Both the position numbers and the translations under genes were made by a program. The notes below the pieces were generated by a model that saw only the letters and a program-made list of their open reading frames with translations, had not been told where the DNA came from and made no database searches. DNA of 64,000 nt, from IMG/VR virus record IMGVR_UViG_3300021255_002485, positions 67,802 to 131,801 of that record. One strand, 5' to 3'. The stretch comes from a virus (Duplodnaviria; Caudoviricetes). Each line of letters starts with the position of its first letter. The first letter of the stretch is position 1. Shown here piece by piece: positions 7,126-60,526 of this stretch.

Positions 7126-7435
7126 TCATTTCCTCTCTTATAGCCCCAATTGTTTGCCAAACATCCGTAAGATATGTTGTACATTTTTGAGACAATTCCG
7201 TTCTTGATTCTTCACTTTGATTGTATTCCCACGCGATATCAAACAATTCGTGTATCTTACTTATTGCATCATCGATTTCTTCGATCTCCCCCTTTTTCTT
7301 CCGAGTGTTTTTCCACTTGTATTTCTTAAAGCATCTTTTAATTATGTCAATCTGTTTATTTACTCTATTTTTTATATCACTAAACGGATCTGCTATCACT
7401 GTTGAATAATTGTCATCTCTCTGAATTATTGCCAT
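7115..7435 (-). CDS. hypothetical protein
   Basis: ORF immediately downstream of the palindrome at 7449. Confidence 0.65.
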   Translation of the reverse strand: MAIIQRDDNYSTVIADPFSDIKNRVNKQIDIIKRCFKKYKWKNTRKKKGEIEEIDDAISKIHELFDIAWEYNQSEESRTELSQKCTTYLTDVWQTIGAIREEMIED

Positions 7436-7573
7436 AAATTTACCCCTAATAAAAATCGAATTTTATTACCTTTCACATAGAGGTTTAAGCGTCCCCCTCA
7501 AAGCGCACATCCCACCATTGTTGGCCTGACTTTCGTCACTGAGTCCGGTGTCACATTTGCTCTCCCACTCCGC

Positions 7574-7647
7574 TGACTCCAGCGGGACTCGAACCCGGCA
7601 TCCCAGCCTTGAAAGGGCTGTGTCCTTACCTATTAGACTATGGAGCC
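7574..7647 (-). tRNA. tRNA-Glu (UUC)
   Basis: GGCTCCA/TGGAGTC acceptor, CAGCC-CTTTCAA-GGCTG anticodon arm, GGTTCGAGTCC. Confidence 0.93.
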
Positions 7648-7825
7648 ATTTTGCCTACCGCACCAAACGCTTCGCATTTGTTGGTGTCTCTGTTTCTATA
7701 TCTCTGCCGTTGGTCTTACGAGATCGTCGCGTCCATTTCGGCAATTGCTATCAAAATGTCAATTTTCTGCGATTTTGACGCATAATTGCTATCATATTAG
7801 CAAAAGTTTTGAATCATCCTTACAA

Positions 7826-7854
7826 ATCATATCATTGTGTTTTAATTTTGTCAA
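7826..7854 (-). promoter_or_regulatory. sigma-A promoter with AATTAAAA spacer motif
   Basis: TTGACA-AAATTAAAACACAATGA(17)-TATGAT. Confidence 0.75.
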
Positions 7855-9179: not shown

Positions 9180-9410
9180 TTACCGCACATAAGTCATATC
9201 ATCATAAAATGCCCGGATAATCGACTTGCACGCTGCTTTCTTCACTACTTCTGCATTACCCTTCATTTTCTCCTTGATCATTCTCTGACACGTATGACTA
9301 TCATTGATCAGTACATACATAAACTCTTCGTCTTCGGCTATTACTGCCATCAAATGATTTTTCACTTTAATAAAATCACCTACATCAATTTTGTTCATAC
9401 ACACATCCAA
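9180..9410 (-). CDS. small hypothetical protein
   Basis: ORF in a co-oriented run. Confidence 0.6.
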   Translation of the reverse strand: MDVCMNKIDVGDFIKVKNHLMAVIAEDEEFMYVLINDSHTCQRMIKEKMKGNAEVVKKAACKSIIRAFYDDMTYVR

Positions 9411-9604
9411 TCATCAAAATCATCTTTCTCATGCTCGTCAGATAAAATGAGTAATATTCCTGACAAAAGCATAATTACAATCACTAATCCGATGAGAAAA
9501 TACCACCAAGGATAACCGCTCCATACATTAAGAACCGTATAAAACAAAAATCCTAAAATGTATATATGTTTATTTTTATTTACAAAACTCAATATTTCAT
9601 TCAT
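9395..9604 (-). CDS. small membrane protein
   Basis: Two hydrophobic segments. Confidence 0.6.
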   Translation of the reverse strand: MNEILSFVNKNKHIYILGFLFYTVLNVWSGYPWWYFLIGLVIVIMLLSGILLILSDEHEKDDFDDWMCV

Positions 9605-9731
9605 AATCTTTACCCTTGCCTTTCTATATATGTGGGTACACAGTGAAAAGGGGGAATTATTTGCATAGATAGAAGTGAATCTGTGTACCCACTATCACAA
9701 TGGAGGTAATCGCCTTATGGCTAAGACGACA

Positions 9732-9803
9732 CAGGGCATACTGGATTTGAACCAGTGAATACAGCAGTCAAAGTGCTGTGCCTTACCGCTTGGCGAATGC
9801 CCT
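9732..9803 (-). tRNA. tRNA-Gln (UUG)
   Basis: AGGGCAT/ATGCCCT acceptor, GCCAAGCGGTAAGGC D-arm, CTTTGAC anticodon loop, GGTTCAAATCC. Confidence 0.95.
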
Positions 9804-9859
9804 ATTTGCCACACCCTGAGAGAAAGGGAGAATAAAGAAAAAGGTGTGGCTACAAACAA

Positions 9860-10255
9860 TTAGATATTTTCTGTTTTCTGAAGGCCTGCTCCACCATTAT
9901 AAAAAACTAATTTCATCTGATCTCTCATCTTGGCTTTCACCAGCTTACCCTTGTGGTAAATCTGTGGAGCGCAGCCATACTTCTGAAAGACGACCATTTC
10001 AAAACCTCGATTACCCTCAAACGTAATATTGATTACGTTATCAAGCATATCCAATGCATCCTTCAGAGTGTCATGATAATCGTCAACCTGAGCAGACATT
10101 CTACCGTTCGCATCTAACAGATCCTCTATGGTTTCACAATTCTGATTTATTGCATCCCTCACTCTGTCATACTGTTCGTTATACTGATCGACAGTAGCCT
10201 TATACAAGTTACGTTCCTTTACAAGTTCTTCATACTTCTTTTTACTAATCCACAT
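9860..10255 (-). CDS. coiled-coil hypothetical protein
   Basis: AAGGAG RBS, 131 aa. Confidence 0.7.
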   Translation of the reverse strand: MWISKKKYEELVKERNLYKATVDQYNEQYDRVRDAINQNCETIEDLLDANGRMSAQVDDYHDTLKDALDMLDNVINITFEGNRGFEMVVFQKYGCAPQIYHKGKLVKAKMRDQMKLVFYNGGAGLQKTENI

Positions 10256-10270
10256 TTGATTGACTCCTTT

Positions 10271-11455
10271 TTATATATCGTGTTTCATTAAATATTGTCT
10301 GCTTACGTTCTTAAAACTGACATTAGGATTCTTTATTCCTCTGTATACATATCCCTCTCTTAATCCAGAAGATCCAGGTATCTCACATTCCCCATCTGCT
10401 TGAAGCTTCAAGGTTTCCATATCTTCCGGTAGATAATATTCTTCATTGATAATCGGAACCCATTCTATCCCATATTGCTCACAAAGTGCTTTAGCATCTA
10501 CAGAATTCCATCTACCCTCTACGGAATCAATGAAATTAAATCCAAAAAATCTTAATTCATTCAACTTATGCGGATTACCCTGTATGCTTGGACCACATAT
10601 TTCACCTTGAATAGCTACATAATTCCAATCTGGATTCTTTTCGAGCATATCTTGTAAGAAATCTCTGATATGGAATTTGAATTCCGCATTCCAATAAACA
10701 TTATCATCGTGATAGGTCTTCTGATCGGGAGTGAGCTGTCGCACATTACGAGAACATACGTAGAACTCATATTTGCCACGCTTTAACCTTTCAAGGATAA
10801 ATGTACCGGAAGTTCCATCGCATTTAGTTGTCTGAATAAGAGGCTCTTTATAACCAAATAGCCATTCTTGATCAAGTGCTTCTACACGATTTTCGTCGGT
10901 CTTATGTACAAACTCAAATTTTGTAGGAAATCCTAACGGCTTATCTTTTCTACCAAATACAAAGAAGAGTAACTTTTTGCCCCATTCTCTCTTCATCAAC
11001 CATCTAAACCACTTCTGCTTAGCAAGCCTTTGATGCCTTGCAGCCATAGCATTATATTTTGCATTCGGATTATTTTTTGCTTTACGAATGTTATCTTCGG
11101 CAACGGAATAAGTAACTTTAAGAAGCTCTGTGATATCATCACCTTCATGCCATTCCTTATTAGCAAGCTCTGGTATATTTGAGATCGGAATAGCCAATCC
11201 CTGTGATATGACCCCTAACTTACCAAGCTTATAGGTCTTCACCTTATAATGCTTAGGTTCAAGAAATTTACACCAATCCTTTTCGGGAAGCTTGCTATCT
11301 ATTTCAAAGAAAGCACAAAGATCGCCCTCGTGGAAATCTCCAATATGAGCAAATAATACCCAACCAAGTACACCGATCTTCTCTATACTGTCCGCTCCCT
11401 CGATTGGCTTGACCCATGCTATTTTCTCTATATGCGCTAATTTTCTATCTGCCAT
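10271..11455 (-). CDS. RNA ligase (Rnl2/DRB0094-like)
   Basis: RKLAHIEKI N-terminus, motif I KCDGTS, QGEICG, REGYV, SFKNVS. Confidence 0.9.
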   Translation of the reverse strand: MADRKLAHIEKIAWVKPIEGADSIEKIGVLGWVLFAHIGDFHEGDLCAFFEIDSKLPEKDWCKFLEPKHYKVKTYKLGKLGVISQGLAIPISNIPELANKEWHEGDDITELLKVTYSVAEDNIRKAKNNPNAKYNAMAARHQRLAKQKWFRWLMKREWGKKLLFFVFGRKDKPLGFPTKFEFVHKTDENRVEALDQEWLFGYKEPLIQTTKCDGTSGTFILERLKRGKYEFYVCSRNVRQLTPDQKTYHDDNVYWNAEFKFHIRDFLQDMLEKNPDWNYVAIQGEICGPSIQGNPHKLNELRFFGFNFIDSVEGRWNSVDAKALCEQYGIEWVPIINEEYYLPEDMETLKLQADGECEIPGSSGLREGYVYRGIKNPNVSFKNVSRQYLMKHDI

Positions 11456-13880: not shown

Positions 13881-13909
13881 ATTGTAACATTGTATTTTAA
13901 TTGTGTCAA
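13881..13909 (-). promoter_or_regulatory. sigma-A promoter with AATTAAAA spacer motif
   Basis: TTGACA-CAATTAAAATACAATGT(17)-TACAAT, extended -10 TG. Confidence 0.8.
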
Positions 13910-17311: not shown

Positions 17312-17392
17312 AAAAAATGGCTACGGTGTAGGTATTTTACGTATGGAAGGGAATTAAGAAAGTGAGTATATGAAAGGAATTCCGTAGCCATA
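17312..17392 (-). ncRNA. candidate ~80-nt stem-closed sRNA with anti-Shine-Dalgarno loop
   Basis: ATGGCTACGG/CCGTAGCCAT 10-bp stem plus U-tract; starts about 6 nt after a TATGAT -10; CU-rich loop. Confidence 0.55.
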
Positions 17393-17397
17393 TTTAT

Positions 17398-17426
17398 ATC
17401 ATATCTTGCCATTTTAATTTTGTCAA
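17398..17426 (-). promoter_or_regulatory. sigma-A promoter with AATTAAAA spacer motif
   Basis: TTGACA-AAATTAAAATGGCAAGA(17)-TATGAT. Confidence 0.8.
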
Positions 17427-60183: not shown

Positions 60184-60360
60184 TTAGGTGGTTATTCTCC
60201 GAAATCCGAATGATTTGATCATTTTGGCAATATTTTCGACTTTTTTATCTGACAATTTAGGACACTTGCAGATAACGTTGATTGTATGCCATTTAAGCAC
60301 TATGTGTGCAAGATAACAAATACATCCGCAAATCGAAGGGGCTATGAGCATAATGTACAT
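60184..60360 (-). CDS. small antisense-oriented hydrophobic peptide (58 aa), moron or type I toxin-like
   Basis: GGAAAGGAGG RBS; hydrophobic N-terminus, basic C-terminus; TTGACA at 60421-60426. Confidence 0.65.
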   Translation of the reverse strand: MYIMLIAPSICGCICYLAHIVLKWHTINVICKCPKLSDKKVENIAKMIKSFGFRRITT

Positions 60361-60526
60361 AGCTACCTCCTTTCCGAAATATTTTCTCGTGTAATTAATA
60401 TATTGTTTTGTGGACTTTTGTGTCAAATTTTGCCTATAGGGCATCAATACAGCTTATAACGAAAACTCTCTCAGTATCCGAGATGTAGGAAGTACTTATG
60501 AGTATATTTGATCGACGGATTATTGT

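Follow-up and report, generated by a model that had tools for sequence, protein, structure and literature searches.

Introduction

RNase P cuts at tRNA position +1, and in Firmicutes the tRNAs without an encoded CCA are cut by RNase Z after the discriminator. One small RNA that is co-transcribed with a tRNA in E. coli is the 3′ external transcribed spacer of leuZ. RNAC and RNAD of phage T4 are small RNAs of unknown function that are also co-transcribed with tRNAs (PMC9697503). The icaR mRNA of Staphylococcus aureus carries a UCCCCUG anti-Shine-Dalgarno (anti-SD) motif in its 3′ UTR; this motif base-pairs with the mRNA's own SD, and the duplex is a substrate of RNase III (PMC3868564). RNAIII hairpins, RsaA and RsaE/RoxS of Firmicutes are C-rich-loop sRNAs, whose UCCC motifs bind SD regions (PMC3961350, PMC3868564). 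RNase J1 is a 5′-monophosphate-dependent exonuclease, and 5′ structures stabilise messages; the 5′-terminal stem-loop stabilisers of Firmicutes messages, of the aprE and ermC leader type, protect against this enzyme (PMC3997798).

How a message survives and is regulated after a tRNA has been excised from the middle of an operon has rarely been examined in phages. Here, we describe a tRNA-carrying spacer in a phage genome that combines known kinds of element, namely UTR hairpins, cis anti-SD locks and C-rich-loop regulators, and compare it with the systems above.

Results

A tRNA-Gln gene lies between stable hairpins in a minus-strand operon

We analysed a stretch of 64,000 nucleotides (the window; all positions below refer to it), which covers bases 67802-131801 of a gut phage record; the record is 131.8 kb long and has direct terminal repeats. 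A block of minus-strand genes runs from about window −12000 to 52142, and a tRNA-Gln with anticodon UUG sits in a 255-nt gap (9605-9859) of a minus-strand operon. ARAGORN placed this tRNA at 9731-9804 and Rfam at 9732-9803 (63 bits, minus strand), with the CCA not encoded; in the Rfam search only the tRNA exceeded the threshold, and the sub-threshold matches were noise. Upstream of the gap is an ORF of 131 aa without a family (9860-10255, minus strand), and an Rnl-type RNA ligase gene (PHROG 968; 10271-11455, minus strand) lies two genes upstream of the tRNA. Downstream is an orphan ORF of 69 aa (9395-9604, minus strand; hereafter ORF 9604) with two predicted transmembrane helices and an acidic tail, whose start region (9605-9625, minus strand) contains GAAAGG (9624-9619) and AAGGGU (9617-9612) ahead of the ATG at 9604-9602. 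Only weak relatives, or none, were found for the 131-aa and 69-aa genes. The RNA ligase, the tRNA-Gln(UUG) and a nearby tRNA-Glu(UUC) fit a kit for tRNA repair or replacement against anticodon nucleases.

A consensus scan of the sense strand found no promoter-like or terminator-like sites in the gap, so that, judged from the sequence, the tRNA-Gln most simply belongs to a polycistronic phage transcript. The nearest strong promoter upstream of the gap is at 13909.

Read along the sense strand, the stop codon of the 131-aa ORF is followed by 9 nt, a first stem-loop (SL1), AAAU, the tRNA, a single U, a 9-bp hairpin, another U, ACCUCC, 9 nt and a second stem-loop (SL2), after which come the purine-rich start region and the ATG at 9604. 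SL1 (9808-9850, minus strand) has a 10-bp stem, and its C/U-rich loop of 23 nt lacks G and contains UCUCCCUUUCU as its core; the hairpin folds at −14.0 kcal/mol (z −4.6 against dinucleotide shuffles), and its 3′ edge lies 4 nt (the AAAU) ahead of tRNA position 1, the RNase P site. The 9-bp hairpin (9709-9730, minus strand; z −4.5 against dinucleotide shuffles) has a GCCA tetraloop and is separated from the tRNA discriminator by one unpaired U. The ACCUCC at 9702-9707 (minus strand) equals the anti-SD core of 16S rRNA. SL2 (9632-9692, minus strand) combines a perfect 12-bp stem with a 37-nt loop that carries UUCCCCCUUUUC and one G, and folds at −18.5 kcal/mol (z −5.6 against dinucleotide shuffles). 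The whole flanking region folds at z −4.6 by the same measure, and in the MFE folds the loop tracts of SL1 and SL2 are open. The hairpins bracketing the tRNA-Gln, which had been noticed in a first-pass annotation of the sequence, are real and non-random, and their unpaired loops are anti-SD-like with UCCC/CUCC cores.

Sixteen nucleotides after the tRNA-Gln (AGCCAUAAGGCNAUUA; 9708-9723, minus strand) equal the trailer of the tRNA-Gln of Dulem virus 39 (L002:3005-3020, minus strand), an otherwise unrelated 60-kb phage. A scan of viral contigs with this motif gave chance matches only, none of them beside a tRNA.

The hairpins lie at the predicted ends of processed messages

We propose that the 255-nt gap is a processed spacer of a tRNA-carrying polycistronic phage transcript, and that its elements act mainly in cis: hairpins would protect RNA ends, and the SD of the next gene would be sequestered. 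This cis architecture is the explanation that we tentatively prefer, at somewhat below an even chance of being right. By analogy with tRNA maturation in Firmicutes, RNase P would cut 4 nt past SL1, and RNase Z would cut after the discriminator of the CCA-less tRNA-Gln. The upstream message would then end in SL1 plus 4 nt, a position in which SL1 may serve as a 3′-terminal hairpin that blocks 3′ exonucleases. The downstream message would start with a 5′ monophosphate and one U, followed by the 9-bp hairpin as its 5′-terminal hairpin. Such a 5′ monophosphate would be the preferred entry point of RNase J1, and the 9-bp hairpin would guard it; this hairpin is placed as a 5′-terminal stabiliser only if RNase Z makes its predicted cut after G9732.

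The arrangement resembles the aprE and ermC leaders in that a phage hairpin lies at most 1 nt from a predicted 5′ end, which holds for the 9-bp hairpin after RNase Z cleavage and for the stem of a related element at 17312-17392, described below, which stands at its predicted transcription start. It differs in that the 5′ end next to the tRNA-Gln would come from tRNA 3′ processing instead of transcription initiation, and the stem at 17312-17392 closes an open loop of 55 nt, whereas the described stabilisers are compact. As in T4 RNAC and RNAD and the leuZ spacer, a structured non-tRNA RNA adjoins a tRNA, with ends that would be set by tRNA processing enzymes; however, the pieces in the window are contiguous with protein-coding messages, and RNAC and RNAD have better analogues in the modules that lie between tRNAs in the distant phages L230 and L233.

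Hairpins beside tRNAs are common in related phages. On the 5′ side, 35 of 66 unique tRNAs had a hairpin whose end lay no more than 8 nt from the tRNA, compared with 17 of 66 shifted windows (26%) and 85 of 400 random windows (21%). On the other side, a hairpin started within 5 nt of the tRNA 3′ end in 33 of the 66, compared with 74 of 400 random windows (18.5%). Examples come from the phages G001 and L241 and from a group of phages of about 60 kb. In G001, the closest relative with a tRNA-Gln, an 8-bp hairpin with a 3-nt loop lies 5 nt upstream of that tRNA and none lies downstream. Taken together, these counts and the G001 locus indicate that tRNA-adjacent hairpins are a general feature, while large loops are not. 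End protection needs no G-free loops of 23-55 nt, and thus leaves the most striking feature of the locus unexplained.

Homologues of SL1 and SL2 that could be used for covariation were not found among the relatives searched, which counts against the cis model. The collections hold only distant kin of this phage, and G001 matches it at 66-74% identity in scattered genes. Relatives of the RNA ligase exist at 77-79%; none of the 80 RNA ligase loci compared for synteny has a tRNA-Gln downstream, and nucleotide similarity was not found in them beyond the ligase gene. The search returned no SL1 or SL2 homologue from the phage database or these 80 loci, from 38 viral loci with the same tRNA anticodon and T arms, or from 26 metagenome loci with the same tRNA 5′ half.

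ACCUCC is predicted to sequester the SD of the downstream gene

The predicted processed 5′ UTR of ORF 9604 was folded from 9730 to 9585. In this fold, the ACCU of ACCUCC pairs with the SD core GGGU (9615-9612) at P 0.92-0.96, and ACCUCC as a whole is unpaired at P 0.017. SL2 clamps the tip of a long, irregular helix that extends over about 9708-9611, and the loop tract of SL2 stays unpaired at P 0.975; the whole 5′ UTR has a z of −3.7. The anti-SD and the SD of one transcript are paired in the predicted ensemble, as in an icaR-like leader. According to this thermodynamic prediction, the 12-bp SL2 clamp holds ACCUCC in place, and ACCUCC pairs with the SD ahead of the 69-aa membrane-protein gene; translation of ORF 9604 would therefore be blocked for as long as the helix is neither opened nor cleaved.

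The same pairing bears on a further feature of the first-pass annotation, which had read the complement of the segment after the tRNA as a complete start region and taken the RNA to be antisense to it. In the 52-kb minus-strand block, there are three antisense GGAGG-N5-12-ATG matches against about 4-5 expected, and the plus-strand GGAGG-N10-ATG at 9702-9719 is one of the three, so that the match is not special. The ATG GCT AAG of that reading is given by the complement of the 9-bp hairpin, with the ATG coming from its loop and stem; the hairpin itself had gone unrecognised in the annotation. In the modelled fold, the apparent start region is accounted for by the self-complementary 9-bp hairpin together with the cis anti-SD ACCUCC, which is predicted to pair with the downstream SD at P about 0.96.

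The SL1 loop is also predicted on thermodynamic grounds to be unusually complementary to the start region of ORF 9604, with 17 pairs at −18.0 kcal/mol and rank 8 among 235 start regions, in a post hoc comparison that was one of about four tests. An icaR-type pairing of SL1 with the SD of its own gene was rejected (rank 226/235). Pairing of the SL2 loop with its own downstream start region was unremarkable (rank 98/235), and so was that of the 17312-17392 loop (rank 190/235), whose downstream SD is fully accessible in the predicted fold. With two of the three loops unremarkable in cis, the cis model accounts well for the stems and for ACCUCC, but for the loops only in part. The nearly G-free C/U loops would stay single-stranded, and the candidate jobs for them are an extra lock, pairing in trans or protein binding.

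The likeness to icaR lies in a C-rich anti-SD tract in a UTR; its predicted partner is an AGGGG-type SD in cis, and the two would form a long duplex that may be an RNase III target. Two differences are apparent. The tightest partner in the phage is ACCUCC, which by prediction lies in the same 5′ UTR as the SD and is clamped by a 12-bp hairpin, and the 3′-UTR-like SL1 is complementary to the gene beyond the tRNA, not to the SD of its own gene.

Across 235 start regions, the median P(unpaired) of the SD in this genome is 0.55. After the tRNA-Glu, ACCUCU (7484-7477) pairs in a parallel manner with the SD of the gene starting at 7435, which ranks 9/235 for SD sequestration; the gene after a tRNA-Asn ranks 15/235. 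With a broad SD definition, the gene after the tRNA-Gln ranks only 55/235, though its core is about 95% paired.

The region of the tRNA-Glu(UUC) (7436-7831, minus strand) is a 396-nt non-coding stretch with a strong promoter (7854-7826), the tRNA and a purine-rich structured trailer that includes the ACCUCU. Between 60520 and 60850 on the plus strand, a tRNA-Thr is preceded by a terminator-like hairpin and U5, and downstream of the tRNA-Asn come a hairpin, with a stem of 8 bp and a loop of 44 nt, and a U-rich tail for which the next SD is a possible partner.

Hairpins with C-rich loops are rare, and a third one lies at 17312-17392

The sense strand of the minus-strand block consists of 36% A, 23% G, 27% T and 13% C. 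C-containing pyrimidine tracts of at least 9 nt are six times rarer on this strand than on the antisense strand (30 versus 189). Eight of the 30 sense tracts are non-coding, and three of the eight are the SL1 loop, the SL2 loop and a loop at 17345-17353; the other five are mostly descending (3′) arms of ordinary terminators or embedded in stems, and one is complementary to a true SD. A sense-strand CCUCCUUUCC at 60366-60375 was set aside because it is complementary to the SD of a small minus-strand gene, a real one that has a promoter of its own. In 60184-60447 (minus strand), a small hydrophobic ORF (ATG near 60357) has a perfect SD and a TTGACA-18-TATATT promoter, and it opposes the neighbouring plus-strand genes and tRNAs.

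We scanned the whole 131.8-kb genome for hairpins with a stem of at least 8 bp, at least four G-C pairs, and no more than one G in a loop that contains a C-rich pyrimidine tract. Exactly three were returned, namely SL1, SL2 and 17312-17392, all on the sense strand; their loops measure 23, 37 and 55 nt and contain 0, 1 and 1 G, respectively. The same scan of the closest relative G001 gave zero such hairpins. The rarity of the tracts and the three-member outcome of the scan confirm the earlier observation, including the design that the hairpin at 17312-17392 had been said to share with those beside the tRNA-Gln.

The third element (17312-17426, minus strand) has a promoter and a 10-bp stem whose 55-nt loop contains a single G; a U-run, an SD and a gene of 377 aa follow. 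Its promoter is TTGACA, 17 nt, TATGAT (17426-17398), and the RNA is predicted to begin at the stem. A homologue in the phage L302 keeps the promoter, the stem and a C/U-rich loop; between the two, the stem shows one compensatory change from C-G to U-A, and the loop differs in sequence with its composition kept. Only at 17312-17392, among the three hairpins, is the stem followed by a U6 run, which is absent from L302. We rejected SL1 and SL2 as intrinsic terminators, since they have loops of 23 and 37 nt, lack a U-run and were unlisted by the terminator scan.

A possible role of the loops as anti-SD RNAs acting in trans

An alternative that we consider unlikely, if worth weighing, is that the loops act in trans: after excision of the tRNA, and perhaps further cuts, the SL1 and SL2 loops would block purine-rich ribosome-binding sites of phage or host messages. 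Such a role is consistent with the unpaired state of the loops, their UCCC/CUCC cores and a composition that stands out on the sense strand. The best predicted partners of SL1 among the 235 start regions are those of the phage's own genes starting at window −9400 and 49325, with duplexes of 19-20 bp at −26.9 and −27.5 kcal/mol that beat 30 of 30 shuffled loops. The best targets of SL2 in the same set are no better than those of shuffles, and when the phage's own sense RNA was searched for exact complements of the loops, the longest ones did not reach significance (p 0.07 to 0.7).

A UCCCC motif acts in trans in RNAIII and RsaE (PMC3868564) and in RsaA (PMC3961350), and UCCC/CCCCC motifs in unpaired hairpin loops are likewise present in the phage. 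Unlike these sRNAs, SL1 and SL2 have no gene, promoter or terminator of their own; they show no sequence or Rfam similarity to them, and their loops are much larger. Only the 17312-17392 element has its own promoter, one of the marks of a discrete sRNA. Independent RNA ends cannot be predicted for SL1 and SL2, which no promoter or terminator brackets, and neither hairpin is conserved even in the closest relative G001.

The first-pass annotation had gone further, with the hairpins released by tRNA processing as separate guides against host genes such as defence genes, and this interpretation is partly supported. Its link between hairpins and tRNA processing holds insofar as the predicted RNA ends lie directly beside the hairpins. 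Release as separate guides does not follow, as SL1 stands 9 nt past the upstream stop codon, SL2 lies inside the 5′ UTR of the next gene, and the gap has neither promoter nor terminator. Guides aimed at host genes are not supported, and the exact 20-mer of the "start region" had no match in one genome each of 185,579 species. The enrichment at start codons that had been suggested as a check cannot discriminate, because any anti-SD-like sequence would pass.

Anti-SD modules between the tRNAs of related phages

Phages with the same tRNA-Gln type carry non-coding anti-SD modules of 95 and 183 nt between their tRNAs, which argues for a trans role. The 95-nt module (L230:12887-12983 and eight variants, alignment A3) is found in gut phages of 100-165 kb. 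It is ordered as a terminator-like hairpin, a second hairpin, a 12-bp hairpin and an invariant ACUCCUUUCU that abuts the 5′ end of the next tRNA. The module is non-coding, with three compensatory pairs in the 12-bp hairpin and no conservation of an opposite-strand ATG. To judge from its sequence, cleavage by RNase P would give this module a 3′ tail that matches the end of 16S rRNA exactly.

The other module is a spacer of 183-184 nt between tRNA-Gln and tRNA-Thr in L233, L237, L242 and others, starting 3 nt after the tRNA-Gln. It contains a 13-bp stem, a 63-nt loop with a UCUCCUUUCU-type tract and a second tract, ACCUC, and the complements of both tracts read SD-N5-8-ATGATTCC. In four of those genomes, no start region matching the motifs of the L233-type spacer was found elsewhere. 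Across 93 unique tRNA flanks, sense tracts outnumber antisense tracts (29 versus 17), the reverse of the genome-wide bias. Since conserved inter-tRNA anti-SD modules occur in distant phages, a trans role is plausible in phages generally, though at this locus it is no more than a candidate.

The relatives show two further features. Gut phages of about 60 kb (L276-L301, alignment A2) have a tRNA-Gln that shares this 5′ half; a 6-bp hairpin starts 2 nt past it, and the tRNA's conserved, structured trailer of about 140 nt has a hairpin loop, CCCUCAUA, complementary to a downstream GUGAGGG. In another relative, a tRNA with a CUA anticodon (L004:2160-2242; "Pyl" in ARAGORN) may be an amber suppressor, which hints at stop-codon recoding in part of the phage group.

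A broader reading, to which we give a small chance, is that large gut phages employ tRNA-processing enzymes to produce small RNAs with a copy of the 16S anti-SD tail, either displayed or at their end. In the window, its members would be the two loops beside the tRNA-Gln and the promoter-driven RNA at 17312-17392; in the relatives, the member would be the hairpin followed by the invariant tail at the 3′ end left by RNase P. Phage regulators of this class were not described in the literature searched. If this reading is true, the anti-SD RNAs would compete with ribosomes for their binding sites and reprogramme translation during infection.

Less probable readings: the loops as protein platforms or incidental features

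The loops might instead be platforms for a protein, either Rho, at rut-like, YC-rich single strands with more C than G that would give regulated polarity in the untranslated spacers, or a pyrimidine-binding RNA-binding protein of the phage or host; we regard this as quite improbable. Composition speaks for it, with G-free runs of 33 and 41 nt holding 13 C each on a sense strand of 13% C, and between L302 and the window element it is loop composition, not sequence, that is kept. All three elements stand in untranslated stretches ahead of something expressed, and cis complementarity is unremarkable for two of the three loops. Against Rho, loops of 23-55 nt are shorter than typical rut sites (roughly 60-80 nt) and are enclosed by stable stems; the protein reading as a whole has no identified candidate.

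That the hairpins are incidental or neutral, or belong to a plus-strand feature such as small ORFs or promoters, is very improbable: in its favour are hairpin folds on either strand, a weak promoter-like match on the plus strand at 9579-9607 and the abundance of 8-bp inverted repeats in the genome (249), but the z values of −4.5 to −5.6 and the strand-specific asymmetry of composition stand against chance, promoter-like matches are fewer than in shuffles, and plus-strand mini-ORFs were rejected, having just 3-13 codons, with the opposite-strand ATG and ORF lost in the related 95-nt module while its stem covaries.

Discussion

Under the cis architecture that we prefer, the spacer at 9605-9859 offers a compact and testable layout, in which a predicted 3′ cap hairpin, a predicted 5′ cap hairpin one nucleotide from the tRNA cut and a clamped anti-SD lock would follow one another, the lock acting on a small membrane protein. 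Beyond this locus, the anti-SD modules conserved between the tRNAs of related phages hint that RNA resembling the tail of the ribosomal RNA may be used by phages more widely, in a way that has not been described. If this is confirmed, the tRNA-Gln locus would be one entry point to it, and not the cleanest.
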